A DNA stretch of 27,674 nucleotides from a virus (lineage: Duplodnaviria > Caudoviricetes): positions 1 through 27,674 of the IMG/VR virus record IMGVR_UViG_3300008255_000392; one strand, 5' to 3'. The translations under genes and the position numbers were made by a program. This document shows positions 2,271 to 25,308 of the stretch, one piece after another. Under the pieces are notes generated by a model. The model had not been told where the DNA came from and searched no databases. It saw only the letters and a list, made by a program, of their open reading frames with translations. Position 1 is the stretch's first letter. Every line of letters starts with the position of its first letter.

Positions 2271-3098
2271 GTGATCCCTCACGCCCCGGAATCCCACGTT
2301 CGGACGGTACTCCGGATGCACCCGGCAATGGTAGGACATTACCCGTTGCGATCCGGAATCCCCACGGTGGATATTTCTGGAAAAGGGCAAACCGGCACGA
2401 TCACCTTGATGAATCCAAACCGCGGGAAGTATGACCGGGAACCTGGACTCTACGGCGCATGGGACGACACCCATGAGGCGTGGTTCGATTCCAATATCGC
2501 AACGATCCTTCAAGCCTTTACCATGGGAGGGTGGGCTTTCTGTCTTGGTAAAGCAGATGGTTCCAATGAATTATGGAGTAAGCGACAGTATTATTCTTCG
2601 GCGCATGCCGAATTTCCTTTTGCCATTTATCTCGACGCGGCCGCAACTTCCATCAGTTATATGTTGGATTCAGGAAATGATTACACGCCAGATCATCGTA
2701 TTACAACTGCCATCCCAGGTGGGTTAAAAGACCGTTGGTTCTTTTACTGCCTCACAAGGAACGGCAACAATAACATTCTCAACATCAACGGCATCCCTGT
2801 GGTTGTGTCCTCCTGGGCGGGAACTATGGCGGCCGGAAACAAAACGAAATATCGCTTTGGGTCCCCGAATGGAAATGGTCCAGGACAATACACGGCATCC
2901 TTCAATGGATATTTTGGGGAACATTTCATCATGAACGTCGGGATCGACCAGACACAAATAGCCCATATCTACCGTCAAACAAGAAATCGCTACCTAACAA
3001 GGGGCGCCTACATCCTCGATTCAACTCCTGCCGCAGGTGGTGAATCGGCCGTTCCGGTGTTCCAGTCAAACTACTCCCGCAGGAGAAGGGCGGCGTAG
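2271..3098 (+). CDS. LamG / concanavalin A-like lectin domain protein (probable virion accessory)
   Basis: GTG start right after the previous stop. LamG-type motifs FTMGGW, WFFYCLTRNG..ILNING, FNGYFGEHFIMN..IDQTQIAHIY. Confidence 0.75.
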   Translation: MIPHAPESHVRTVLRMHPAMVGHYPLRSGIPTVDISGKGQTGTITLMNPNRGKYDREPGLYGAWDDTHEAWFDSNIATILQAFTMGGWAFCLGKADGSNELWSKRQYYSSAHAEFPFAIYLDAAATSISYMLDSGNDYTPDHRITTAIPGGLKDRWFFYCLTRNGNNNILNINGIPVVVSSWAGTMAAGNKTKYRFGSPNGNGPGQYTASFNGYFGEHFIMNVGIDQTQIAHIYRQTRNRYLTRGAYILDSTPAAGGESAVPVFQSNYSRRRRAA

Positions 3099-3810: not shown

Positions 3811-4278
3811 ATGGAAAAGATCGACTTCCTGGCACGTCAGCCGAAGCAAACCCTCTTGGGAACGCCCTGGCAGAAGGATCCCTTCGATTGCCGTCATACC
3901 CTCATGGAATTCAAGGGTACGGCTTTCGTGGATGGACTCCATTCCCATCAGATCGTGCAACTCTTCCAATGCCAGGATTGCGGGCTCGTTCATAAGGTCC
4001 CTCGGTCGGTGAAGGAAGCCGGAGTCTCCGGCGCTGTGGATATTGACGACCCGCGCGTGAAACGCACCCTGCGCCTCACGCCCTCCGTCGTCTCCCGCCT
4101 GTTCCCGTTCAAGGAGGGCAGGGGAGGCACGAAGGAATGCATGGAGATCTTCCAGGTCCCGAGATCCTGGGGTGCCCCCCGCAGGGGTGCCCCCCGCAGG
4201 GGTGCCCCCCGCAGGGATGCCCCCCGCAGGGATGCCCCCCGCAGGGGTGCCCCCCGCAGGGGAGGGACCCGGGGATGA
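3811..4278 (+). CDS. Hypothetical protein with possible Zn-binding motif and GAPRR repeat tail
   Basis: AGGAG RBS; CRH...CQDC motif; C-terminus encoded by a 15-bp tandem repeat; stop overlaps the portal ATG. Confidence 0.55.
   Translation: MEKIDFLARQPKQTLLGTPWQKDPFDCRHTLMEFKGTAFVDGLHSHQIVQLFQCQDCGLVHKVPRSVKEAGVSGAVDIDDPRVKRTLRLTPSVVSRLFPFKEGRGGTKECMEIFQVPRSWGAPRRGAPRRGAPRRDAPRRDAPRRGAPRRGGTRG
4169..4258 (+). repeat. 15-bp tandem repeat GGG(G/A)TGCCCCCCGCA x6
   Basis: Directly visible; encodes (G/D)APRR in the 3811-4278 frame. Confidence 0.95.
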
Positions 4279-6579: not shown

Positions 6580-7596
6580 ATGTTCAAAAACCTTCTACTC
6601 ACCCTGGCCGAGCCCGGGTCAGAAGGTGGCTCCGGGGGGGGTGGCACTCCCACGGAATCAGGACCTCCACCGTTGCCGTCTGCTTCCGCTCGGGAACGCA
6701 TCTATGAACACGCCGATGCGTCCCCGAATTCCGGAACCGATGGCACAGAAGCCCCACCCGCGGCCCCCGAGGCCACGCCCAAGCCCCCGGCAGGACTGCC
6801 GTCCACAGGACTGCCGTCCACAGGACTGCCGTCCGCAGGACTGCCGTCCGCAGGACTGCCGTCCGCAGGACTGCCATCCGCAGGACCGGATTCGGCGAAG
6901 GCGAAGGACTCGGATTCGGCTCCGGCGAAGGGTGAAGGAACACTGGACCCCGTTGCGGAGAAGCGGGTGAAGGACGCACAGGCGGCTTTCACGAAAGGCC
7001 AACAGGACCTTGCGGCCGAACGGAAGGCGCGCAAGGAAGCGGAGGCCAAAATCGCCAAGGTGTCGAAGTACGTCGATATGGAAAAACTCGACGCCCACGA
7101 CGCCGAGGAATTGGACAAGGAACTGGATCAGCCGGTAACGAAGCGGGACCTCGAAGCCCTCAAGGCCGCCTCGCCTCCTACGGAAGATGCCCCCTCGGCA
7201 TCCACGTTGGATTCCGAAACCCGGCAGAAGTTCCTCGACGATTACTACACGAAGAACGCCCACGTCAAGCCGTATGCGGATTCAGGAGAGGCATACGGGG
7301 TGTTCCTCAAGGCGGCCGAACGCCTGGGTCCGGAGATCGCGGGCCTGTCCGAACTCGATCAACTCGCAAAGATCGGTGAGGCCGTTTCGAGTTACTTCCG
7401 GACTAAGGACGCGGAACGGGAGAAAGCGATTGCGGAACGGCTGAACACCAAGCGGTCCAACATCAGCGTCGGCGGGGGCCTGGATTCAGCGGGCGCCCCG
7501 GGAACCGGGGAAGCCGAGGACGTGGGCGACGATCCGGCCGCGGAAGTCGCGCACCGGAAAGCCGCGCAAAGCCGCGCCCTCCGGCCGACCCTCTAA
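6580..7596 (+). CDS. Capsid scaffolding protein (putative)
   Basis: Immediately upstream of the capsid gene; acidic, low-complexity N-terminus; coiled-coil KRVKDAQAAFTKGQQDLAAERK; basic C-terminal end. Confidence 0.7.
   Translation: MFKNLLLTLAEPGSEGGSGGGGTPTESGPPPLPSASARERIYEHADASPNSGTDGTEAPPAAPEATPKPPAGLPSTGLPSTGLPSAGLPSAGLPSAGLPSAGPDSAKAKDSDSAPAKGEGTLDPVAEKRVKDAQAAFTKGQQDLAAERKARKEAEAKIAKVSKYVDMEKLDAHDAEELDKELDQPVTKRDLEALKAASPPTEDAPSASTLDSETRQKFLDDYYTKNAHVKPYADSGEAYGVFLKAAERLGPEIAGLSELDQLAKIGEAVSSYFRTKDAEREKAIAERLNTKRSNISVGGGLDSAGAPGTGEAEDVGDDPAAEVAHRKAAQSRALRPTL
6793..6882 (+). repeat. 15-bp tandem repeat GGACTGCC(G/A)TCC(A/G)CA x6
   Basis: Directly visible; encodes GLPS(T/A) in the scaffold. 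Confidence 0.95.
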
Positions 7597-8539: not shown

Positions 8540-8984
8540 TATGGACGCTCAAGGACGGTCCTACTCGGCGTTCGGGCACCAGCAACTCATCAACCTGGGC
8601 CATGACGTTAACCTCTTGGTCAACGACGGCATCAACGCCGCAACAGTGGCCATCACCGGCACCATCTTCAAGATCCCCTCTACCTGGAACGGGGTCCTGA
8701 AGTCCGTCTCCGCGTACATCAAGACGGGCGGGACGGTCGCTTCGGCCGGCCACGTCGGGCTCATCCAACGGTCCCTCGCCGGGACCGGCGCCTACGCTTC
8801 GATCGGAACCCTCTCCTTCCTCGGGACCCACGCCGATGGCGCCGTTCTGGCCGGGGCGGTGGATTCCTCCGTCACCGTCCTGGGCGGCGATATCCTGCGT
8901 CTCGCGGTGGGCGCGGGAACGAACTTGCAGACGCTCACCGTCACCGTCACGGCCGCGTTCCAGGAAGCGTTCATCTCCGCGTAA
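8532..8984 (+). CDS. Putative capsid decoration/cement protein
   Basis: Overlaps the capsid stop, GGAGG RBS, 150 aa, Gly/Ala/Thr/Val-rich beta composition, upstream of the hairpin. Function inferred from position. Confidence 0.55.
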   Translation: MPNMDAQGRSYSAFGHQQLINLGHDVNLLVNDGINAATVAITGTIFKIPSTWNGVLKSVSAYIKTGGTVASAGHVGLIQRSLAGTGAYASIGTLSFLGTHADGAVLAGAVDSSVTVLGGDILRLAVGAGTNLQTLTVTVTAAFQEAFISA

Positions 8985-9007
8985 GCGGGGAAAACACAGC
9001 AACTACC

Positions 9008-9036
9008 GGGCGGGGGAGCACTCCCCCGCCCACCTT
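9008..9036 (+). terminator. GC-rich hairpin after the capsid/decoration genes (weak terminator or mRNA-stabilising stem)
   Basis: Perfect inverted repeat GGGCGGGGGAG-CA-CTCCCCCGCCC followed only by ACCTT (poor U-tract). Confidence 0.6.
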
Positions 9037-9045
9037 GGGAGTCGC

Positions 9046-10113
9046 ATGAAGTCGATGATCTTACGGTACGGGGCCTATGGGGATCTGATCTATCTGCTCC
9101 CGCTGATCGACCGGATGAAGGCCGATGGGAAGGACCTGTACCTGCACACCGGCATCCGGGGGCTCGACGTGTTCCAGGCCGATCCTCGCTTTCAGTCCAT
9201 CCTCGCTTGCAACCCCGCAACCGCCGAGGATTGGCAGGAAGTCATCAATAAGGACATTGAAACCGTCAACCCGGACGAGATCGTAAACCTCACCGACACG
9301 ATGGAAGGGACGCTCATCCCGGGAAGGGAACAACCGTCCTTCCATTGGCCGGTGGAGAAGCGCCGGAAGGTGACCCAGGGGGAGAGTTTCTACTCATTCG
9401 GGCTCAAGGTCGCGGGGTATTCCCGGGGGGAAGGATGCGGGACCGTGGCCTTCACGGAGGAGGAACTGACCTGGGCCGATCGGTGGAGGGAGACCTACCG
9501 GGACGAGTTTCTGGTGATGATGCCCGTCTCGGGATCCAACGCCCAGAAGCGGTTTCCGATCGCCAAGGAGTTGGGAAGGGAGATCCTTTCCCGTTACCCG
9601 GACGCGATTCTCTATCTCACCGGAGGGCCGAACGAGAAGCATCGGTCGTTCTCCTTCGGGGACCATCGGGTGTATCCGGCCTTCGATACGTCCTTCCGGC
9701 AGGTCCTCCTGATGACGCGGTACGCCGACTACGTTGTGGGCCCGGAAACGGGGCTCCTGGCCGCCGCGGGAATGTGGGGCACTCCGAAAACGATGCTCTG
9801 TACCTCGTCGTCGGTCTTTCAAGCAACCGATGGCCACCGAAACGACTTCTCCCTGCAAGCGGAGATTCCCTGCTCCCCCTGTCTCCGGGCGATCTACAAG
9901 CCCGAGGACTGTTACCATTCGCACGTCGCCGAGGATGAAACGGTTTGCAACTACAAATTCAGAATGGAGACGATTCTTGAGTCCATCAACGTGGTTTACC
10001 GGACAATGCGCTATCGACGGGAGCAAGATGGAAAACTTCGCACCCAACCTATTCGAGTGCCCGAACTGCTCCCTGATCTCGGCAGATTACCCGGCGCTTC
10101 CGGAACTGTATGA
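9046..10113 (+). CDS. Glycosyltransferase family 9 (heptosyltransferase-like, GT-B fold)
   Basis: ATG at 9046 with GGGAG RBS; ILRYGAYGDLIYLLPLI, KRFP, ADYVVGPETGLL, GTPKTML, C-terminal CSPC..C..C. Confidence 0.85.
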   Translation: MKSMILRYGAYGDLIYLLPLIDRMKADGKDLYLHTGIRGLDVFQADPRFQSILACNPATAEDWQEVINKDIETVNPDEIVNLTDTMEGTLIPGREQPSFHWPVEKRRKVTQGESFYSFGLKVAGYSRGEGCGTVAFTEEELTWADRWRETYRDEFLVMMPVSGSNAQKRFPIAKELGREILSRYPDAILYLTGGPNEKHRSFSFGDHRVYPAFDTSFRQVLLMTRYADYVVGPETGLLAAAGMWGTPKTMLCTSSSVFQATDGHRNDFSLQAEIPCSPCLRAIYKPEDCYHSHVAEDETVCNYKFRMETILESINVVYRTMRYRREQDGKLRTQPIRVPELLPDLGRLPGASGTV

Positions 10114-10654
10114 TGAATACTACCTCGAAACGTACCGGAAACTGGCCCAGGCACCCCTCTCCGACCTGCTCATGCGATGCCGGTGGGGGCTCGTCCGTCG
10201 CCATCTCAATGGACACAAGACCCTGCTCGACTACGGCACAGGAACGGGCGCGTTCCTCGAAAACGCCATGCGTCCTGGGGATCTCTCCGTGAAGGGATAC
10301 GACGTCAATCCCGCGTCCCCGTTCAGCCGCGTCATGATCGACCACCTTCGCCCGGACGTCCTGACGATGTTCGATGTGGTGGAACACCTGACGGATCCCA
10401 AGGGAGTGATCGAGAAGATCCACCCCCGCCTCCTGACGATCTCGACGCCGAACGTCGATTTCGTCGACACAAAGAACCTCCCCACCTGGCGCCATTTCAA
10501 GCCGGGGGAACATCTGCACTACTTCGGCCAGAAGGCCCTCACGGCCCTGATGCGGTCGACCGGGTTCGCCGTCGAGGAAATGTCCTTCACGGAAGCCGCG
10601 AAGCGCAATCCCGACCGGCCCTTCGACATCATTACGATGGTGGGCGCCCGATGA
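10028..10654 (+). CDS. Class I SAM-dependent methyltransferase with N-terminal CxxC
   Basis: ATG at 10028 after GGGAG; CPNC; motif I LLDYGTGTG; DVLTMFDVVEHLTDP; STPN; PGEHLHYF. This pattern is typical of glycan-locus methyltransferases. Confidence 0.85.
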   Translation: MENFAPNLFECPNCSLISADYPALPELYDEYYLETYRKLAQAPLSDLLMRCRWGLVRRHLNGHKTLLDYGTGTGAFLENAMRPGDLSVKGYDVNPASPFSRVMIDHLRPDVLTMFDVVEHLTDPKGVIEKIHPRLLTISTPNVDFVDTKNLPTWRHFKPGEHLHYFGQKALTALMRSTGFAVEEMSFTEAAKRNPDRPFDIITMVGAR

Positions 10655-12279
10655 CCTGGGACATCAACGCGCCGTACATCCCGGAAGTGGAGAAGTGCCG
10701 GCACCGGCTTCTGCAATACTGCGAGGGCCAGGGACTCGATCTGGGGTGCGGGTCGAAGAAGATCAAAGATACGGCGATCGGGTGCGACCTGGGGAAGGGC
10801 CCGAATTCGGCCGCCGACTTTTCGATCGACCTCGAGGGGGGCTTGACCCTGTTCGCCTCGGATACGTTCGATTTCGTGTTCTCGTCTCACTACCTCGAAC
10901 ATACGAAGAACCCCGTCACCGTACTCCGGGAGTGGTTCCGGGTGATCCGTCCGGGCGGGAACCTCGTCCTCTACCTCCCCCACAGGGACCTGTACCCCAG
11001 GATGGGGCAGAAGGGGTCCAACCCGGACCATAAAAACGACTTCGAGCCCGGAGACATTCTCCGGATCATGGACGAGATCGGCTCCTACAAGGTCCTGGTC
11101 AACGAGATCCACGGGGAGGCCGACGAATACTCCTTTGAACTGGTGTTCAACAAGGTTTCCTCCCTCCCGGGGATCACGGCCGCCATTCCGAAGGTCCTCC
11201 CCGCGCCCGGGCAGAAAACCGCGTGTGTTGTCCGGTACGGGGGGATCGGAGACGTCATCTTCGCAACGCCCGTCCTCCGGCGCCTGAAAGAGGAAGGGTA
11301 TCACGTCACCGTCAATACCTCGGAGAACGGCCGGGAGATGTTCAAGGGCAATCCGAACATCGACCAGATGATCTTCCAGGGGATAAACGAAGTGGCCAAC
11401 GCCGACCTCGAGGCGTATTGGGCGAAACTGGCGACTCGGTTCGACCGCTTCATCAACCTCTCCGGGACTTGCGAGAAGGCCCTCTTGCAGATCAAGGGGG
11501 AAGGGTCCGACTACGACCTCTCCGACGACGAGCGGCGGGCGAAGTACGGGAACATCAACTACACCGACTATGCCCTGAAAATTGCCGGATTCGATGACCG
11601 GGGGTTGAATGGGGAGATCTTCCTCACGGAGGAAGAAGAACTCTCGGCGTCCGTGTTCCGGACGGCCCTTACCGGCCGATTCGTAGTGATCTGGGCTCTG
11701 GGGGGCTCGGGACCGCACAAGCGGTTTCCGTTCTATGCAATAGCGATGGCCGCCTTCGCGCGACAGCATCCGGAAGTGCTGTTCATCACCGTGGGAGGGC
11801 AACCGGAGAAACTGCTCGAACTGGCCGCCGACGACGATCCGAATTACCTCCACAAGTCCGGACGGTGGACGATCCGCAACGTCGCCGCGGCGGTGAAGTA
11901 CGCGGATCTGGTGGTGGGTCCGGAAACCGGGGTCCTCAACATGGCGGGGTGCTTCGATACCCCGAAGATCTGTATGCTCACGCACTCGTCCTGGGCGAAC
12001 CTCTGCAAGTATTGGAAGAACGACTACTCCATCCAGTCCAAGCAACGCTGTTCCCCGTGCCACAAGATGATCTACCAGAAAAACGACTGTCCGAAGGACG
12101 AGCACTTCAAGGTGTGCGCTTGCGCCACGCAGTTCGACCCGTCCGATCTCTTACCCAAGATGAAGGAGGTATTCCGAAAATGGAGGCGCACAAATTCAAC
12201 CCTGATCGCCCTTCCGGGATTGGCGTCGATGGGAACCAACGATGGATCACCCAAGGCCCGTGGAAGTTTGATCCATTAA
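10651..12279 (+). CDS. Methyltransferase-GT9 glycosyltransferase fusion
   Basis: ATGA overlap at 10651. N-domain GLDLGCG, FDFVFSSHYLEH, WFRVIRPGG. C-domain VVRYGGIGDVIFATPVLRRLK, ADLVVGPETGVLN, CSPC..C..C. Confidence 0.85.
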   Translation: MTWDINAPYIPEVEKCRHRLLQYCEGQGLDLGCGSKKIKDTAIGCDLGKGPNSAADFSIDLEGGLTLFASDTFDFVFSSHYLEHTKNPVTVLREWFRVIRPGGNLVLYLPHRDLYPRMGQKGSNPDHKNDFEPGDILRIMDEIGSYKVLVNEIHGEADEYSFELVFNKVSSLPGITAAIPKVLPAPGQKTACVVRYGGIGDVIFATPVLRRLKEEGYHVTVNTSENGREMFKGNPNIDQMIFQGINEVANADLEAYWAKLATRFDRFINLSGTCEKALLQIKGEGSDYDLSDDERRAKYGNINYTDYALKIAGFDDRGLNGEIFLTEEEELSASVFRTALTGRFVVIWALGGSGPHKRFPFYAIAMAAFARQHPEVLFITVGGQPEKLLELAADDDPNYLHKSGRWTIRNVAAAVKYADLVVGPETGVLNMAGCFDTPKICMLTHSSWANLCKYWKNDYSIQSKQRCSPCHKMIYQKNDCPKDEHFKVCACATQFDPSDLLPKMKEVFRKWRRTNSTLIALPGLASMGTNDGSPKARGSLIH

Positions 12280-16691: not shown

Positions 16692-17311
16692 GGCCCCCAC
16701 GTCTCATACCGAACTCCCCGGACCTGATGGCGCAGTTGCAGACGCATTTAGACCTGATCTGGAACGAACTCGAGGCGCAAAAAGGGGTAGGCGGGAAAAC
16801 GATCCGGCTCCTGGGGCCGATCGACATGAAGGGGTTGCCGATTCAGAACACGACCCCATCCGTGCCGACGAAACACTCCGGAGCCCACCAGAACGGGGGA
16901 AACGACGAACTGACGGTGACGGGCCTCTCCGGACTCCTGGGAGACGACCAGACGCCGTTTCTCATGGCGGCCGATCAACGGGGCGGGGCGAAACTCGGGG
17001 ATGTGTTCGCTCTCGTCTCCGAAGTCCTGACGCTCTCCCTCCATTCGACGATGGGGATTCAGAAGGTGGACGGGGTGTACCTGGCCCTGAAACAGCAAAC
17101 GCCCGTGGCGCCGATCGCGTCTCCGGACGCCTCCGACATAGGAACGGTCGTTACCCTGGCGAACGAACTGAAAGTGAAATTCGACGAATTGCTCGTAAAA
17201 TTGAAACTCGCGGAGATCATGCCGTGGTACGAGGGGTATTTCCACCAGTATTACTTCCATTCGGATTATTGGGCCGCGGCCCCGTCCGGATACTTCCGGC
17301 AGGTGGTGTGA
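16688..17311 (+). CDS. Short fibre/needle-like virion protein with aromatic C-terminal peptide
   Basis: ATGA overlap; HxxxHxxGGxDxL motif; heptad LANELKVKFDELLVKLK resembling head-fibre C-termini; then PWYEGYFHQYYFHSDYW. Confidence 0.55.
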   Translation: MRPPRLIPNSPDLMAQLQTHLDLIWNELEAQKGVGGKTIRLLGPIDMKGLPIQNTTPSVPTKHSGAHQNGGNDELTVTGLSGLLGDDQTPFLMAADQRGGAKLGDVFALVSEVLTLSLHSTMGIQKVDGVYLALKQQTPVAPIASPDASDIGTVVTLANELKVKFDELLVKLKLAEIMPWYEGYFHQYYFHSDYWAAAPSGYFRQVV

Positions 17312-18354
17312 TGCTGAACACTCTCTCCCTCTGCCCGACCTGTTACAAGAAGATCCCCGCAGAGATCCATTTCACGAACGGCGCGGTGATGGTGAAGGAG
17401 TGCGACGTCCATGGGCAGACGGTCGCCCTCTGCGAACGGGATGCGGAGCATTTCTCGAACTTCTACGAATACGGGACCCTGGGGAACTCGAACACGATCA
17501 TCATCCACGTTCACAACCAATGCAACATGACGTGTCCCTGGTGCTATTACCCGATGGGCGTGGAAAAGATGCACGACTTCCCCTGGTACGACGTCCTCCT
17601 GCGTCAGTACAAGGGGAATTTCCGGCTCCTGCTCTCCGGTGGGGAGCCCACGATCCGGCCGGATTATTTCTCGTTCAATGAACGAGCCGCCGAGGCCGGA
17701 TGGAACACGGGCTCGATCACGAATATGCTCAAACTGGCCGACGACGACTTCTTCAAGAGGACCTCCGAAAGCCCCCTCTACGTCCAGGACGGGACCTATA
17801 AATTCGCCATGTCGATGCAACACCCAAAGAACTATTCCCCGGAGATCGCGGTTCAGAAGATGAAAGCCCTGGCCAACATCCGGGCGGCGGGCTTGAAGGC
17901 GATGTGCATCATGTTCTCGATCCAGTCCTTGGACGAACTCCGGTGGATCCGGGAATTCTACGAGGGAACCAAGGAGTGCTACTCCATGCTCCGGATCCGG
18001 ACCATGTTCAAGAACTGGAACAACAAGGGGGATCGGTCCAACCTGTTCCTCTCCGACCTCCACCGGTCTTTCATGCGGATCTTCGAAGACCTGACGCCGT
18101 TGCAATCCCGGGAGATCGAACACTCGAACGCCTACTGCCTCTACATGAAGATGTCCGATGGCATGAACGTGTCGCTCTCCTGCGCACCCACGGTGGAAAA
18201 CGTCGATTACCACCTGACGTCGCGGCCGGTGTTCATGCTTGCGATGGACGGAAGGTGCTACCCCGTGCCTCTGGCCCAGATCATCAACGAGGGGATCTCG
18301 AAAGGTTGGAAAGACGGATACAGGATCGAAGGAGGAACGCCATGTACTTCGTGA
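17311..18354 (+). CDS. Radical SAM protein with N-terminal CxxC...CxxHG domain (COG1964/MJ0619-like architecture)
   Basis: ATG overlaps the upstream TGA; TLSLCPTC...KECDVHG; CNMTCPWC (CxxxCxxC); LSGGEPT; ITN. Confidence 0.85.
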   Translation: MLNTLSLCPTCYKKIPAEIHFTNGAVMVKECDVHGQTVALCERDAEHFSNFYEYGTLGNSNTIIIHVHNQCNMTCPWCYYPMGVEKMHDFPWYDVLLRQYKGNFRLLLSGGEPTIRPDYFSFNERAAEAGWNTGSITNMLKLADDDFFKRTSESPLYVQDGTYKFAMSMQHPKNYSPEIAVQKMKALANIRAAGLKAMCIMFSIQSLDELRWIREFYEGTKECYSMLRIRTMFKNWNNKGDRSNLFLSDLHRSFMRIFEDLTPLQSREIEHSNAYCLYMKMSDGMNVSLSCAPTVENVDYHLTSRPVFMLAMDGRCYPVPLAQIINEGISKGWKDGYRIEGGTPCTS

Positions 18355-18845
18355 TCGGTGCGGCAATCATCGGTGGAGGAATCGCCGCCTACTCGAGCAA
18401 CAAGGCGGCGAAGGCGAATGCGAAGTCCCAGAAGGAAGCCAACGCCGCGAATATCGCGGCGAACGAGAAGGCACACACCATGACGCCCGAGGAAAAGGCG
18501 GCCTTCTTCAATACCGGCATGCAGAAGATCAACACGGGGTACAACACGTCGATCGACGCGACCTCGAGGGCTCTCGCGAAACGCGGCCTGGGAGGGAACG
18601 CGGCGGCCATGCCCCTGGCGGCCATCGGCCGAGGACGGGCTTCCTCGATCGGGGACCTGTACTCCGGACTCGTATCGACCCAGATGAACATGAGGGCGGG
18701 AACCCCGCCGTCGAACATCCAACCCGTCTACTCCGGCGCGGGCGCGGCGAACCTGTTCATGAACACGATGGGGAACACGATGGCGAACGTCGGGTCCTAC
18801 GGGGCCGGAAGGTACCTCGACAAGTATTTCAAGGCGAAGGTCTAA
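18342..18845 (+). CDS. Probable internal virion/ejection protein (small)
   Basis: AAGGAGG RBS; hydrophobic Gly-rich N-terminus VIGAAIIGGGIAAYSS followed by an Ala/Lys/Asn helix and LAKRGLGG, as in P22 gp7 / T7 gp14-type proteins. Confidence 0.65.
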   Translation: MYFVIGAAIIGGGIAAYSSNKAAKANAKSQKEANAANIAANEKAHTMTPEEKAAFFNTGMQKINTGYNTSIDATSRALAKRGLGGNAAAMPLAAIGRGRASSIGDLYSGLVSTQMNMRAGTPPSNIQPVYSGAGAANLFMNTMGNTMANVGSYGAGRYLDKYFKAKV

Positions 18846-18855
18846 GGAGGGCGTC

Positions 18856-20322
18856 ATGGCCGGATTCCAACCGTTCGAGACGATGCCGGATATGTCGAAG
18901 TTCCTATTCGCGGGACTCGATCAGGCGCGGAAGGACCGGGAAAAGCGGGAGAAGTCCAAGGCGATGAAGGACCTCTTTTCCTCCGTCTCCACCCTGTTCA
19001 AGGACGAAATCCCCAACTGGAATCCGTCCTCCGCGCAAGATCTCACGCCTCTCGCGGAACCCGCACCGGCCGGGATCCCCTCCGGCGCGCCGTCTCCTAT
19101 CCCCGCGGCTTCGCCGTCCGCAGGACCGCCAATGCCCGCCGCCGGGGCACCCGCTCCAAGCGGCTTCCCTCCCGTGTTGGGGATGCCTCCGCTCTCCCCG
19201 GAGCAGATCGCAAAGGCGAAGGAATCGTTCGCCAAGATGTCTCCGGAAGACCAGGCGAAGGCGATGGAGGCGGGGAAACAGGCGATGGGAGTCCCTTCGG
19301 GACCGACTCCACCCGCCGCGGGACCTTCGCCGGGGATGTTGAACCTCCAACCGCCGCCTCCGGCAGGGCTCATGTCGCCGGTAGGGCCGGCGATGCCCCC
19401 GGGGATGCCCCTTGGCGCCCCCGGACAGGATCCGAACGCCTTGCGGGCGGGGATCATGAACTCCCTCGCGCAGACCTCCGGGGATTACGCCCCCGAGGCG
19501 GTAGCCGCCATCCATTCGCTGTTCTCGGTGAGCCCCTTCAAGGACACGGAAGGAAGGGACGTATACTCGGCCGCCCCGGGCTCCGTCGTCATGGACAAAA
19601 AAGGCAGGACCCTTTTCAAGGTCCCCGAGAAGGCCGACGAGGCAGGGATCAAGAAGGCCGAGATCGGTGCCGGCGCGACGGTGAAGGCGGCCAAGATCGG
19701 CGCCGGGAGCCGGGAAGCCGCCGCGAAGATCCGAGGGAAGTGGCAGTACAAGAGCGCCGTCGCCCGGGCGAACGCCGCGCGGACCGTGGCAAAGATCCGT
19801 CTCACGGCGGGGGATCGGATCAATTCCCCCGCGAAACTCTACACCTACCTGTCGCAGAAGTTCCTCGACGGCACCCTGCAACCGGCCGAGAAGGAGATCC
19901 TCAACCACCTGGAACCCGTCATCATCAAGATGGGCGGGCTCCAGACCCTGCTCGATATGCAATCCGGAGTCTCGTCGAATCCCCCGCCCTGGGGCGGGAA
20001 CGAACCGGCCGAGACGCCGGATCCGGAAGTACAGCAGGAAGTGGGGTGGTGGGGATCCCTGTTCAACGGCGCCCCGGGCACGACGACTCCCGTCGTTCCT
20101 GCTCCGATCGCCAAGAAAACCCCCGGAAAGGCTGCGCCGGCCAAGGCACCGGCAGTAGGCCCGGGATTCTCGATCGGCGGGCAGAAACTTACCGCTCCCA
20201 CGGGCTATTCAGACGCCGATATTCAGATGACGATGGATTCCATGCAAGCGAAACTCAAGGAGGGGTACTCCAAGGATCAACTGTTCGAGCATTTGAGAAA
20301 AAAAGGTTGGAAAGTGCAGTAG
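18856..20322 (+). CDS. Probable internal virion/ejection protein (Pro-rich)
   Basis: AAGGAGG RBS; Pro/Ala/Met low-complexity segments; middle position in the ejection trio. Confidence 0.55.
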   Translation: MAGFQPFETMPDMSKFLFAGLDQARKDREKREKSKAMKDLFSSVSTLFKDEIPNWNPSSAQDLTPLAEPAPAGIPSGAPSPIPAASPSAGPPMPAAGAPAPSGFPPVLGMPPLSPEQIAKAKESFAKMSPEDQAKAMEAGKQAMGVPSGPTPPAAGPSPGMLNLQPPPPAGLMSPVGPAMPPGMPLGAPGQDPNALRAGIMNSLAQTSGDYAPEAVAAIHSLFSVSPFKDTEGRDVYSAAPGSVVMDKKGRTLFKVPEKADEAGIKKAEIGAGATVKAAKIGAGSREAAAKIRGKWQYKSAVARANAARTVAKIRLTAGDRINSPAKLYTYLSQKFLDGTLQPAEKEILNHLEPVIIKMGGLQTLLDMQSGVSSNPPPWGGNEPAETPDPEVQQEVGWWGSLFNGAPGTTTPVVPAPIAKKTPGKAAPAKAPAVGPGFSIGGQKLTAPTGYSDADIQMTMDSMQAKLKEGYSKDQLFEHLRKKGWKVQ

Positions 20323-20325
20323 GTC

Positions 20326-23300
20326 ATGGATCCCTTCGCTGACTTGGCCCCACCCGTCCGCGCCGCTGATCCGTTCGCGGATCTCGGACCGCCGAGGAAG
20401 GCTACCGATCCCTTTGTGGATCTGGAGCCGTTACCTCCCGTTCCGGAACCGGACGCCTTCGGCATGGTGCCGGTAGAACACCCGTTGGATCTCGCCCTCG
20501 GAGCCGGCGCGTCGTCCGTCGATCTCTCCAAGGGAATCGTCCAATCCCTCGCGGGTGGACTCGGAGCGGCGGGGGCAATCCCCTCGGCGATCTATAACAA
20601 GCAGCCGGAGATCATTCCGCAGACGTTCGAGAAGATCTCCAGCGCTTTCCCGATGGAGCCTGTCTGGAACGCGATCCTGCCGGAACAGGCCAATGTCTAC
20701 CGGAAGGGAATCAACATTCCGGTATCCGAACTGGCAACCTTCCCCCAAGCGTCTGAGAATCTCGGGGACATCATCCTCGAAAAGACCGGCTCCCCCACAA
20801 TAGCGGCGGCGGCGGCTACTTTACTGCAAGCGCTTCCCATCGGTGTGATGAGCAAAACCGGAGCGGAACTGCTCAAAAAGGGCGGGAAGGCGGCCGTAGA
20901 GTCGGTTGTCTCCGATATCCCCCAGGAAACCCTCTACAAGACGGGCCAAAAGACCACCTACACCCGGGCCGACCTCCAAAAGATCCTCACCCAGGACCCA
21001 ACCGCGGATCCAGTCCTGTACGAGCGGGTCACCACGGATCCCGCCTTCAAGCAAACCCTCGTCGACGCCCTGCGCAAGGGGGATCTCTCCGTCGAGGAAC
21101 TGCACCCGAACTGGCTCGGGAAGATCCTCGGCAAGGAGCCGATCACAACCGAGACTCCGACCGAAACACCCCCGCCCGCAAGCCCCAAGGGGGCCCTGCC
21201 GGCCGAGGGGGAAACCGGCGTCACTCCCGCCCCTACGGGTCCTGATCTCATGCCAGGAGGGCAGGGAGGCGTTGCAGAGCCCCTTCCCGGTACGATCTTG
21301 GAGACAAAGACGCAGATGGACGCCGCGAACGCCGTCGCTACGAAGGCGATGTGGGAGCGGCAGGGATTCGATGCAACGATCGAGGGAGATCCGTCCGGAC
21401 TCGGGCATATCGTCACCCGCAGGGTAAAAAAAGGGTACGAAGCCCCGACCGCGCCGGATCCCTTCGCCGATCTGGCCCCCGTTTCGACTCCCGAGGGAAC
21501 CCAAGCGCCTTCGGTCGAGAGAGCGCCCACGCCGCAAGCGGTGGGAACACCGTGGACCGTCCCTTCCCCCGGTCCCGCGGCGGGGCCAGAACCTTTCACC
21601 GAACGTCGAGTAGCCCAGACGTCGGGTCCCCGGGAGCGGCGCGAAGATCTCGCCACCCGGAAGAAGATCGACGAAATGACGCCCGAGGAACAATCGGCCG
21701 CCCTCCGGTATGACGAGAAAACGGGGCTCAAGTCCCATCGGGCCTTCCTCGAGGAAGCCGACACGAAGCCGGTCAAGGTTGCCTTCGACATGAACGGCCT
21801 CAAATGGATCAACGACAATCTCGGCCATGCCGTTGGAGACGATGCTATCCGCGCGGTAGCAGACGCCATCCACGCGGCGCACGGAGACGGGTACAGGATC
21901 TCCGGAGACGAACTGGCGATTCTTGCCGACCACCCCGCGGCGGCCAAGGGAGCGATCGCAAAGATCCGGGACATTCTGAAAGAGACGGAGATCATCGCAA
22001 CACGGCCGGATGGTACGGAGGCGCGGTTCAAAGGCCTCACGATCACGCGGGGAATTGGAGGAACGATAGATGAAGCGTTTACCACCCTCAACGCAGATAA
22101 GGAAGCCGCCATCGGGCGGGGGGACCGCTCCAAAGAGCGCGGAGGACGCCCTCTTGGACTTCTTGAAGTCGCAACCGGGGGGAACGAAGTTCCGGTTCAA
22201 ACTCCCGGACCTCATGCACAACTTCCCACCCGTCCCGAAGGGGATCAGGAGGTAGCCCATGATAAAGAAAACGTCCCAGGGGTACCAAGTAACCTCCCGA
22301 AAGGGGAAACCCCTGTCAAAACCGAACCTGTCACCGGAGGCGGCGAAGGCGCGCCTCGCCCAGGTGGAGATGTTCAAGCACATGAAGGAGCAACACCCGC
22401 TCAAGGAGAGACAACTGAAGCGAAAACGGTTGGAGGAAAGGCTCCGGAAGGGATAGCCCCCGCCGTCACTTGGAAGAAAGCCGCGATCGTTCCCACCCGG
22501 GAAGGCGTGAAGGCCGTTCCGATCGAAGAAAAGCCCGAGCCCCCCGAGGGCGGGACGAAACTGTACGCCTCGCCCCTCGATCCGGAACTGATCGCTCAGG
22601 CGTGGCAATCCCTGAAGCATTCCACGGCTGAATTGAAGGAGCGGCACCGTCTCGCCAAGAGTGCGAAGGGTCTGGATCTCAACTGGTTCAACAAGAAGGT
22701 GAACACCCCGTACTACGTTTTCACCGAGAAATTCCCCCGGTATCGCGGAGTGTTTGACCGGATGCGTCAGATGATGCAGGAGCGGGACGACATCGCCGCG
22801 TCTCTCGCGGAGGACGCGATATCGTTTTTCTCCGGGCTCGAATTCAAGGAGAAGGATGCCGTCAATAAACTGCTCATCAAGGGACGGTATCAGCGGAAGG
22901 TCTGGACGCGGGACGAACTGGTGGAGGAAGGGAAACTCTCCACGAAGCAGATCGACGCCTATCTCGGAATTCGGGCGATGCTCGACCGAGCCCTCGACAT
23001 TTACGAGGACGGCATCATGTACCGGATCACCAAGGGGAAGATGCAAGCGTCCTCGAACCTCTCCGTTCCCCTCATCAAAGATTCCCTGGTCGGTCTGGGA
23101 TTCGATGACGATCGGATCGAGCAGATCGCCGCCCTGATCGGGAGCATCAGGGAGACGAAGCGCAAGGGGTACGCGCCGTTCGCCCGGTTCGGGAACTTCT
23201 CCTACGGCTACGTCCACGTCAAGGAGGACGGCACTCCGGACTGGCAGAATCCCTCCAACTACTTCGCCAAGGAGGAAACCGCGTGGAAGGCGGCCGAGAA

Positions 23301-25308
23301 GTACCAGGTCCTTCTCAAGCGGTTCCACAAGGGGATCTCCGAGGGGCGTCTGATCCCGGTCCCGCCGAAGGAATTGAAGCAGACCGAGGAAGCAAAACTC
23401 TTGCAGGAGATTGGCGGGTTTGAACTCGACGTCATCAAGAAAATCATGGCCCTCGACCCGGAGGCGGCCGCGTCCCTGAAAGAAACCGTGGAGCAGTTCT
23501 TCCAGGCGCAGGGGTTCCGTAGGCATTTCTTTGAGTCCAAGGACTCCCCGGGCTTCTCCACCGACATGGAGCGGGCCCTCGCGGATTACATCGTCTCCCT
23601 GTCCGGGTTCGTCTCGAGGATCAAGGGGATCCCGGAGATGGACAACGCCGCCGCGGGGATGGAGCGGATCCCGGACCTGGCACGGTACTACCGGGAGTGG
23701 AAGAACTATTCGATCTCGCCCCAGGAGGAATTCCATCAACTCCGGGCCGGCCTGTTCCTCTACTTCCTCGGGGGGAACGTCAAGAGCGCCGCGATCAACC
23801 TGACGCAGACGTTCGTGACGACGATCCCCTGGCTCACGCAGTACGTCTCCCCGTTCCGTGCGACGGAGGAAGTCACCCGGGCCGTGAAGGACTTAACCAC
23901 CGCGATGGGCAAACGGGAGGATGGGACCTTCGGTGTGGTGGTCGACAAACTGCCGAAGGATATTCGGGAGATCGTCCGGAGGGGGTACGACGAGGGGATC
24001 GTCTCCGAGCAACTGATCTACGACCTCATGGGGACCGTTCGCAAGCCGTCCTCGATCCGGAAACTCTCCAAGCAGAAGCAGAGGGCCGTCCGGGGATTCG
24101 GATACCTGTTCTCCCTCGCGGAGAAGTCGAACCGGCTGATATCTTTGATAGCGGCGGCCCGGATCCACCAGTCCCTCTCCCAGAAACACGCGGCGAAGAT
24201 GACGGCGTTCGACGCGGGCGGCGGCGGGAAGGAGCCGCCGAAGCCCCCCGGGGGCGGCGGGGCCATACCCTTCGAGGAAGATCCTTTCGAATTCGGGAAG
24301 CGGGCGACGGACGAGACGCAATTCATCTACGCGAAGTACAACCGGCCGGCGATGTTCCGCGGGTGGGGATCCCTGCTCGGGACCTTCCGGACGTTCGTCA
24401 TCAACTTCCTCGAATTCCTCGCCCGGTTGTGGAATCGGGACTCGCTCCGGGCCGTGGGCTCCGTGTTCGTCATGCTCTGGGCCTTCTCCGGGATCCTGGG
24501 GATGCCCTTCGCGGAGAACGTGAAGTACATCCTCGAGGAGGTCGCGGGGATGATCACCCACAAGAAACCCGACCTCGAGACGGCCGTCCGGGAGTGGGGC
24601 TACGAGAATATGGGCGGCCCGGAATTCATGGATTACCTGCTCCACGGACCGTTCCGTCAGGCGACGGGGTTCGATATATCGGCCTCCGTGGGCGTGGGAG
24701 ACGTCCTTCCGTTCTTCGATCGGTATTTCGCTCGGTCCCCCATCGAGACGGTGATCGGGGCTCCCGCCGAAGTCCTCTTAAATCGCCCCGCGCGCGCCTA
24801 CGGATTCTTGAAGGAGGGGCGCCCGTACCGCGCGGCCGAGACGGTAGCGCCGGAATTCCTCCGGAATCCGATGTACGCCGGCAGGATCCTCAAGGAAGGC
24901 GTCCTGGACCGTTCCGGGGGGCAGATCGTCGCCAAGAAGGCCGTCTCCGGTGCCGACGTGGCGAAGAAGGCCCTCGGATTCATACCGACGCAGATCGCCA
25001 AGGCATACGAGCGGGAGAGAGCAAAAGCCCGCATTGGGGAGCGGTCGGAGCAGTTGAAGAAGGACGCGACCCGAGCCCTGCTCAATGCGATCCGGATCGG
25101 GGATCGGCAGAAGGCCGTCTCCATCCTGAAATCGACGGGGCCCAAGCCGGGAGTCCCGCCCGAGGAATGGATCATCCTCAACGAACAGGCGATCGAGAAA
25201 TCGCTTGAGAATACGCTCCTCCCCCCGGAACTCCGGGGGCTACTGCGACAGCCGAATCTGCAACGACCGGCGTTCCTGCGAATGAATAAAGTTTACGGAG
25301 GGAAATGA
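20326..25308 (+). CDS. Large polyvalent ejection protein with GGDEF and PLxRFG-like domains
   Basis: 1660 aa; N-terminal DPFADL repeats; GGDEF-like domain; GYAPFARFG (PLxRFG-type motif, about 23167); helical C-terminal region LGGNVKSAAINLTQ / ETQFIYAKYNRP. Confidence 0.75.
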   Translation: MDPFADLAPPVRAADPFADLGPPRKATDPFVDLEPLPPVPEPDAFGMVPVEHPLDLALGAGASSVDLSKGIVQSLAGGLGAAGAIPSAIYNKQPEIIPQTFEKISSAFPMEPVWNAILPEQANVYRKGINIPVSELATFPQASENLGDIILEKTGSPTIAAAAATLLQALPIGVMSKTGAELLKKGGKAAVESVVSDIPQETLYKTGQKTTYTRADLQKILTQDPTADPVLYERVTTDPAFKQTLVDALRKGDLSVEELHPNWLGKILGKEPITTETPTETPPPASPKGALPAEGETGVTPAPTGPDLMPGGQGGVAEPLPGTILETKTQMDAANAVATKAMWERQGFDATIEGDPSGLGHIVTRRVKKGYEAPTAPDPFADLAPVSTPEGTQAPSVERAPTPQAVGTPWTVPSPGPAAGPEPFTERRVAQTSGPRERREDLATRKKIDEMTPEEQSAALRYDEKTGLKSHRAFLEEADTKPVKVAFDMNGLKWINDNLGHAVGDDAIRAVADAIHAAHGDGYRISGDELAILADHPAAAKGAIAKIRDILKETEIIATRPDGTEARFKGLTITRGIGGTIDEAFTTLNADKEAAIGRGDRSKERGGRPLGLLEVATGGNEVPVQTPGPHAQLPTRPEGDQEVAHDKENVPGVPSNLPKGETPVKTEPVTGGGEGAPRPGGDVQAHEGATPAQGETTEAKTVGGKAPEGIAPAVTWKKAAIVPTREGVKAVPIEEKPEPPEGGTKLYASPLDPELIAQAWQSLKHSTAELKERHRLAKSAKGLDLNWFNKKVNTPYYVFTEKFPRYRGVFDRMRQMMQERDDIAASLAEDAISFFSGLEFKEKDAVNKLLIKGRYQRKVWTRDELVEEGKLSTKQIDAYLGIRAMLDRALDIYEDGIMYRITKGKMQASSNLSVPLIKDSLVGLGFDDDRIEQIAALIGSIRETKRKGYAPFARFGNFSYGYVHVKEDGTPDWQNPSNYFAKEETAWKAAEKYQVLLKRFHKGISEGRLIPVPPKELKQTEEAKLLQEIGGFELDVIKKIMALDPEAAASLKETVEQFFQAQGFRRHFFESKDSPGFSTDMERALADYIVSLSGFVSRIKGIPEMDNAAAGMERIPDLARYYREWKNYSISPQEEFHQLRAGLFLYFLGGNVKSAAINLTQTFVTTIPWLTQYVSPFRATEEVTRAVKDLTTAMGKREDGTFGVVVDKLPKDIREIVRRGYDEGIVSEQLIYDLMGTVRKPSSIRKLSKQKQRAVRGFGYLFSLAEKSNRLISLIAAARIHQSLSQKHAAKMTAFDAGGGGKEPPKPPGGGGAIPFEEDPFEFGKRATDETQFIYAKYNRPAMFRGWGSLLGTFRTFVINFLEFLARLWNRDSLRAVGSVFVMLWAFSGILGMPFAENVKYILEEVAGMITHKKPDLETAVREWGYENMGGPEFMDYLLHGPFRQATGFDISASVGVGDVLPFFDRYFARSPIETVIGAPAEVLLNRPARAYGFLKEGRPYRAAETVAPEFLRNPMYAGRILKEGVLDRSGGQIVAKKAVSGADVAKKALGFIPTQIAKAYERERAKARIGERSEQLKKDATRALLNAIRIGDRQKAVSILKSTGPKPGVPPEEWIILNEQAIEKSLENTLLPPELRGLLRQPNLQRPAFLRMNKVYGGK
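21712..22107 (+). other. GGDEF (diguanylate cyclase-like) domain inside the large protein
   Basis: DEKTGLKSHRAF...FDMNGLKWINDNLGHAVGDDAI...YRISGDEL...TITRGIG...AFTTLNADK matches the DxLTGLxNRR / DxDxFKxxNDxxGHxxGD / RxGGDEF / SxG / AK layout. Confidence 0.85.
22070..22255 (+). CDS. Nested overprinted small protein 1 (61 aa, +1 frame)
   Basis: GGAGG RBS upstream; third-position GC bias moves to this frame over its 3' half; begins in the last helix of the GGDEF domain. Confidence 0.55.
   Translation: MKRLPPSTQIRKPPSGGGTAPKSAEDALLDFLKSQPGGTKFRFKLPDLMHNFPPVPKGIRR
22259..22456 (+). CDS. Nested overprinted small basic protein 2 (65 aa, +1 frame)
   Basis: AGGAGGT RBS 5 nt before the ATG; MIKKTSQGYQVTSRKGKPL..AAKARLAQVEMFKH looks like a folded small phage protein; phage-typical codons occur in this frame rather than the host frame. 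Confidence 0.7.
   Translation: MIKKTSQGYQVTSRKGKPLSKPNLSPEAAKARLAQVEMFKHMKEQHPLKERQLKRKRLEERLRKG

Follow-up and report, generated by a model that had tools for sequence, protein, structure and literature searches.

A GGDEF Domain of a Phage-Specific Clade in a Probable Ejection Protein of a Short-Tailed Phage, With a Candidate Arginine-Rich Substitute for the I-Site

Introduction

Why would a tailed phage place a bacterial second-messenger enzyme in a protein that is probably carried into the host with its DNA? The question is raised by a 27,674-nucleotide stretch of viral DNA (IMG/VR record IMGVR_UViG_3300008255_000392), referred to here as the window, in which a preliminary description of the sequence had recognized a diguanylate cyclase (GGDEF) domain within the largest protein and proposed that the virion injects an unregulated cyclase. 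The feature is real and belongs to a kind already known from computation. GGDEF domains were predicted computationally among the domains of phage and prophage polyvalent proteins (Iyer, Burroughs, Anand, de Souza, and Aravind, 2017; PMC5512222, section 6), and they were proposed there either to disturb nucleotide-based responses of the host or to be directed at competing elements (PMC5512222, section 22). The preliminary description thus overrated the novelty of the locus, since both the occurrence of GGDEF in such proteins and the two uses it suggested were in that paper. Residue-level analysis, a clade, a dimer stem, and an upstream motif are all absent from the abstract and sections 6, 21, 22, and 32 of PMC5512222, although its supplement may bear on the point. 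No experimental test of any phage-encoded GGDEF enzyme was found in the literature within our scope, outside which lie most subscription papers (e.g., the YuA genome paper).

Genome Setting and Ejection-Gene Block

The window represents the structural region of a short-tailed phage and encodes terminase, SU10-type portal and adaptor, major capsid protein, endolysin, and holin. Three plus-strand genes lie 3' of the tail genes and have in common with the T7 gp14-gp15-gp16 block both their small-medium-giant order and gp14 homology. The first (18342..18845) encodes a 167-aa T7 gp14-like internal virion protein, whose best Pfam match, PF24072, falls below the cut-off (E 0.0076); a 48% identical protein, P0206, matches PF24072 at 40.1 bits, above the cut-off of 27. 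The second gene (18856..20322) encodes a 488-aa proline-rich protein that has no significant family match and is placed in the middle, gp15-like slot by position only. The third (20326..25308) encodes a 1660-aa polyvalent protein and, as the last gene of the block with the gp14 homolog two genes upstream, occupies the gp16-like slot. Among nine related long-protein loci tested, T7-like tail genes were found upstream in five and "internal virion protein" genes in three. No significant sequence or structure match was obtained between the giant protein and solved gp16-type or ejectosome proteins. Packaging and injection are inferred from the gene slot, which makes delivery of the 1660-aa protein by the virion probable; the assignment of this protein to an ejection slot in the preliminary description is borne out by the gp14 homolog and by the relatives that sit behind "internal virion protein" genes.

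Several other features of the structural region deserve mention. A terminase ATPase match is confined to the first ORF (62-781), the frame of which is cut by the window edge, and the next, 291-aa ORF (778-1653), which has no match, may be a separately encoded nuclease part. Methyltransferase genes and a methyltransferase-GT9 glycosyltransferase fusion lie between the capsid and adaptor genes (8836-12279) and possibly serve virion or surface sugar modification. A gene between the tail and ejection genes (17224-18354) encodes a radical SAM protein that carries a zinc ribbon at its N-terminus and shows weak TrsS/Tes-like matches, below cut-off. Short tandem repeats with five-residue units precede the portal gene (~4150-4270), GLPST/GLPSA repeat units occur in a scaffold-like protein (~6790-6880), and a segment of 46% GC, compared with about 61%, lies within a laminin-G-like gene (2501-3000) that may be a recent acquisition.

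Architecture of the 1660-aa Protein

The giant protein begins with a triple DPFxDL repeat (20329..20424, plus strand, as are all features of the protein), a fourth copy of which is found at aa 378, before the arginine repeat; these are possibly a packaging or processing signal. An arginine-rich tandem repeat at aa 426-445 (21601..21660) comprises ERR at 426, ERRxD at 437-441, and Arg445. It leads into helices at aa 445-461 (21658..21708), the predicted homodimer stem, which precede a wide turn and the GGDEF domain itself (aa 463-610; 21712..22155) with its SGDEL signature (21901..21915). No strong membrane anchor was found next to the GGDEF domain. The C-terminal half of the protein is a largely helical PLxRFG domain (NF032893; 23167..25128, start approximate) detected at 232.6 bits against a cut-off of 100, and described as uncharacterized in PMC9505181 and PMC13028781. 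This half also matches the DarB-like phrog_10089. Matches to the PLxRFG region were found in 57 phage records, foremost among them F116-like podoviruses, whose giant proteins have this domain in common with that of the window.

A large multidomain protein that is encoded near virion genes and carries disparate cargo corresponds to the polyvalent proteins of Iyer et al. (2017), which likewise include members with GGDEF. The cargo here consists of GGDEF and PLxRFG. In the closest complete relative, L157 (3905 aa), the N-terminus, GGDEF, and PLxRFG parts are the same, and a methylase and an SNF2 helicase lie between these parts, giving a combination of GGDEF, methylase, and SNF2 helicase that is that of the Acetonema example in PMC5512222; compared with those examples, the protein of the window is a minimal version with one recognized enzyme plus PLxRFG. 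LPD, ART-PolyVal, or MuF_C families were detected in 13 of 21 clade proteins scanned, in 12 of them above cut-off. A swap of GGDEF for helicase cargo in close relatives, suggested by P0168, was rejected: complete L157 carries both cargoes, L154 and L158 are truncated where their contigs begin, and P0168 begins inside that ORF.

The GGDEF Domain and Its Clade

The domain matches PF00990 at 36.8 bits (gathering threshold 23.8), while its TIGR00254 score is below cut-off, and fold comparison identified the GGDEF palm fold in aa 463-610; an identification first made from motifs is thereby confirmed by both profile and structure. Relative to canonical cyclases (PleD, WspR, DgcB, DgcR; PF00990), the domain has a shortened I-site loop, a shorter first helix region, an extra beta-hairpin, a clade-specific C-terminal motif (K..R...G.R...RG..P), and histidine for the cross-dimer arginine. 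An arginine repeat lies upstream, and the sensor domain of the canonical enzymes is absent from the protein.

A search of 1.84 billion representatives returned 745 proteins at E<=1e-10; most of the best 150 of these exceed 1,000 aa, and cellular enzymes may be among the remainder of the 745. When IMG/VR was scanned with a core-only pattern, 72 loci (74/111 stretches) were recovered, about 63 of which belong to the clade, and the clade is common in uncultured phages. A scan of genome contigs found at least three clade members among the 80 loci listed and yielded no host assignment. Of the 117 rows of a quick tree, 67 of phage type were separated by a long branch (SH-aLRT 99) from 45 cellular GGDEFs, randomly kept; support in this tree is SH-aLRT without an AU test, its groups were defined by an HMM built from the clade, and one row, L066, fell outside. 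Between the window and L157, dN/dS over the GGDEF domain was 0.19/0.84, and between the window and L001 it was 0.28/1.01, so the domain is under purifying selection. The L001 domain is 68% identical to that of the window but lies in an otherwise unlike protein and gene block, indicating that the GGDEF module moves between phage groups.

The tree also places YuA-like standalone proteins on the phage side, outside a subgroup (94) of virion-type proteins. Matches to the standalone Churro phage gene were found in 55 phage records, one of which is YuA gp44 at 82%. Proteins of the YuA gp44 type (Yuavirus and Bordetella siphoviruses; PMC8471281), known from annotation, share with the window's domain an SGDEF-type signature, an N-terminal helix, and the C-terminal motif, but they are encoded by 156-aa standalone genes in a non-structural region, adjoin an antirestriction gene, and lack the ERRxD motif. 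Short standalone clade members that retain the arginine motif are found at L050:9983-10618, where the gene sits among replication genes, and at L075:10010-10501, and are small natural test proteins. At L014:8861-10771, a 637-aa GGDEF protein is encoded between two virion structural genes in what is apparently a split ejection block, and four places in the unannotated 175-kb record of Escherichia phage ERS-1 (H52; PP337211.1) match a YuA-type GGDEF protein.

Predicted Homodimer

Two GGDEF domains must face each other for cyclase activity. Homodimer prediction gave a score of 0.43, compared with 0.00 for the best control, narrowly passing a mark for which the pass rate was 20 of 30 among solved homodimers and 1 of 23 among single chains; the score covers protein chains, with ligands outside it, and the pass may reflect likeness to known structures, since solved GGDEF dimers exist. 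Contacts agreed between runs to at least 91%, with pLDDT of at least 83. The predicted interface is composed of aa 445-461 and both 526-527 signature loops, with Arg445 inside it, and the GGDEF domains are thus predicted to dimerize by way of helices of their own, N-terminal to the fold. At least eight proteins among the best 150 of the 745 search matches (P0025, P0027, P0050, P0052, P0060, P0062, P0132, and P0148) carry two clade GGDEF domains in tandem within a single chain, and the motifs of both copies look intact.

I-Site Loss and the Upstream Arginine Motif

The canonical I-site, RxxD five residues before the signature, is absent from the window's domain. Its frequency is 1/59 in long and 0/9 in short clade rows, whereas 19/44 cellular rows have it; the I-site loop in the clade is typically three residues shorter. 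About 50 residues upstream lies [ED]RRxDxxxR, most often exactly 50 before Asp488 (21/41 anchored rows). Motif counts were made on 54 non-redundant viral long proteins from the core-only pattern, leaving out L033 and L047, which lack an anchor, L066, whose upstream part is short, and near-copies (>90%); the 160-sequence homology set was not used, because the query itself held the motif and the counts would have been biased. The full motif, [ED][RK]Rx[DN]xxxR, occurs in 33/54, [ED]RR as such in 45/54, two copies in 12/54, and the Cle core [YF]xGP[DE]RR in 3/54. Corresponding figures for [ED]RR and the full motif were 5/85 and 0/85 in cellular GGDEFs and 57/3502 and 0/3502 in sequence windows elsewhere in the same proteins; as the 54 rows are related to one another, no Fisher value is attached to this enrichment. 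In the 1660-aa protein, [ED]RR occurs only twice, at aa 426 and 437. The full motif is absent from 21/54 viral long proteins and from the YuA-like standalone proteins. A correspondence between motif loss and the Asn variant at the guanine-reading site was considered and rejected, the motif being kept in eight rows with Asn there; this retention and the absences just named weigh against the favored mechanism (see below).

The arginine-rich region (ARR) of Cle contains a tandem core, [YF]xGP[DE][RK]R (Nesper, 2017; PMC5677366). The Cle ARR and CSP (PMC5677366; Hee, 2020; PMC7382256) have in common with the window a tandem arginine repeat with DRR-like and RxxD elements, and their GPR.R..D register is matched. 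Compared with CSP, the window's repeat has three residues less between its halves, threonine for the stacking tyrosine, and glutamate for Lys/Arg, and in CSP changes of these kinds weaken c-di-GMP binding (PMC7382256, Table 1). Furthermore, the Cle ARR sits on a CheY-like domain, whereas the phage motif is fused to a cyclase and is often a single repeat in relatives. On a strict definition, which asks for DRR and [RK]RxxD at a distance of 11 residues and for [YF]xGP cores, the shorter spacer, the lack of tyrosine, and the Glu for Lys/Arg place the window's repeat outside the Cle ARR/CSP group; it may work like these elements, yet is not filed as a member. On this analogy, the chance that the [ED]RRxD motif binds c-di-GMP is put just short of even. 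If so, it may substitute for the missing I-site as a feedback brake, a role favored by analogy with the I-site, and since the dimer model places the stems together, a single c-di-GMP dimer could be contacted by both RxxD motifs. Of the earlier notion of an unregulated cyclase, the lack of a canonical I-site is upheld and extends clade-wide, while "unregulated" has become doubtful because the upstream motif resembles a known c-di-GMP-binding one.

A domain that is constitutive and free of feedback, as the preliminary description proposed, is the alternative. The arginines would then be structural, as a dimer stem or a contact to DNA or capsid, or would stabilize the active dimer, and would exert no brake, as might be expected from the missing I-site, the departures from CSP, the position of Arg445 within the predicted dimer interface, and the YuA-like versions that do without the motif. 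The fixed spacing, the conserved RxxD, and the occasional exact Cle-type cores, however, are more readily explained by ligand binding than by a generic basic patch, and we regard a feedback-free domain as unlikely, though deserving serious attention.

Proposed Mechanism and Purpose

Intact catalytic residues (see below) in a protein that occupies an injected-protein slot suggest that the phage likely injects a predicted-active signaling enzyme. In the mechanism that we favor, the 1660-aa protein would be packed in the head and injected with the DNA, its GGDEF domains would pair via their own N-terminal helices, as modeled, and the paired domains would convert GTP of the host to c-di-GMP within minutes of the start of infection. 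The c-di-GMP made would plausibly be bound by the [ED]RRxD motif, acting as a replacement for the feedback site. The resulting pulse would push the host into a high-c-di-GMP state in which pili or flagella are withdrawn or surface sugars changed, and rival phages are kept out. Taken as a whole, an injected c-di-GMP cyclase with a substitute feedback motif and a host-surface purpose is the best overall explanation, with about an even chance of being correct; exclusion of rival phages by a high-c-di-GMP state is the most likely purpose, but as such is proposed tentatively. A concentration of 1 uM corresponds to ~600 molecules per femtolitre. A few injected copies would presumably give only a limited pulse. 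On a rough estimate, such copies could reach micromolar c-di-GMP in minutes, depending on turnover rate.

A surface purpose is favored by two precedents. Among host genes induced by c-di-GMP is plzR, which blocks pili and also the adsorption of YuA (PMC11461919). PB1-like phages raise host c-di-GMP, the effect also proposed for the window's protein, but do so through a peptide (PMC8085984); these YIP peptides stimulate host YfiN and, unlike the window's protein, are neither enzymes nor virion-borne. Lysogens of the GGDEF-bearing phage LK3 do not fit a simple high-c-di-GMP state, because they are hyperbiofilm formers yet more motile; these observations concern whole lysogens, in which the GGDEF gene was not singled out.

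The same injected, active cyclase could instead serve counter-defense, its nucleotide jamming or misleading nucleotide-sensing immunity with no surface remodeling intended. This use was already proposed in section 22 of PMC5512222, and the same chassis carries anti-restriction-type cargo, namely the methylase and SNF2 helicase of L157 and the DarB-like PHROG match, with ART and ParB domains in relatives; the antirestriction neighbor of the Yuavirus gene points the same way, and Asn or Thr at the guanine-reading site in 10/58 relatives hints at varied products. Nevertheless, no defense system is linked to the window's protein, and in some phyla c-di-GMP is an anti-phage signal, so that making it would harm the phage. 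A counter-defense purpose is therefore considered rather unlikely.

Catalytic Competence and Product

The favored mechanism, an injected c-di-GMP cyclase, requires a working active site. D488, K493, N496, D505, and G527-D528-E529 are all present (metal Asp, Lys, Asn, guanine Asp, and xG[DE]E), as the preliminary description had claimed, the roles of D488, K493, and N496 being those that we take them to have from PleD numbering. Asp488, Gly504, Gly527, Asp528, and Glu529, none of them part of the viral search pattern, are invariant in 58/58 aligned long rows, and Lys592 and Arg601 are kept in 55/58 and 56/58, respectively. The Glu529 position is that of the general base (PMC6456294). The guanine-reading position, Asp505 in the window, is Asp in 48/58 long rows, Asn in 9, and Thr in 1. 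Two residues depart from the majority: His471, where 33/58 rows have Arg, at what is probably the position of the cross-dimer arginine that favors guanine, and Ala595, where 45/58 have Arg. A 4-residue insertion lies near the phosphate-binding pair of Lys592, and either A595 or R601 could hold the place of its arginine. L157 shares both His471 and Ala595, which are thus not private decay.

With SGDEL and His471, the domain lies outside class I (an exact GG[DE]EF signature plus the cross-dimer Arg) and fits class II of PMC13725321. Verified cyclases exist among A/SGDEF domains (PMC13725321, section 2.4; PMC8079147); for MbaA the evidence is genetic and in vivo, and the purified cytoplasmic part was without cyclase activity in vitro (PMC8079147). 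We consider it probable that the domain is an active dinucleotide cyclase. A catalytically dead domain, one that only binds GTP or c-di-GMP as a sponge or scaffold, or one that works late in the producing cell instead of being delivered, might be read from SGDEL, His471, and Ala595, from the fact that canonical motifs do not guarantee cyclase activity (PMC13725321), and from the inferred nature of the virion placement; the invariant metal and general-base residues, a dN/dS of ~0.25, the tandem pairs, and the ejection slot argue against all of these, and they are improbable.

If the domain is active, c-di-GMP is probably the main product, because Asp505 occupies the guanine-reading position; the product expected in the preliminary description is accordingly retained. 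Identity as a Hypr (cGAMP) synthase was rejected on the same residue, the Hypr serine that replaces Asp in xxGD being absent. Although His471, shared with L157, replaces a cross-dimer Arg whose position shifts the product ratio in GacA (PMC6456294), and the clade is divergent, retention of Asp505 and Asn496 and the absence of the Hypr-defining Ser make a product mixture or another product (cGAMP, c-di-AMP, or linear pppGpG) the least probable of the alternatives. The clade members with Asn or Thr at the guanine-reading position (L011, L022, L031, L040, L045, L046, L056, L057, L058, and L060) are candidates for other products.

Concluding Remarks

What is new here are the predicted dimerizing helices, the clade-wide loss of the I-site together with an upstream arginine motif, and the grouping of YuA gp44-type proteins with the clade. 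A compact 190-aa domain and a three-residue motif to mutate provide test objects, and the YuA-like phages, which are in culture and have a standalone gene grouping with the clade, are a ready test system. A linear arginine motif acting in place of the I-site would, if true, add a mode of regulation new to GGDEF enzymes. It is conceivable, though doubtful, that tailed phages own an ancient and widespread clade of self-dimerizing injected cyclases in which the I-site was lost and a Cle/CSP-like peptide clamps c-di-GMP on the dimer axis; such a clamp would represent a new allosteric design for dosing a virion-delivered second-messenger pulse, and the injected enzyme might even bring along c-di-GMP from the preceding host. 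Should the proposed mechanism hold, the phage would already have reshaped a central bacterial second messenger by the time the first of its genes is expressed, a use of these domains that was predicted in 2017.
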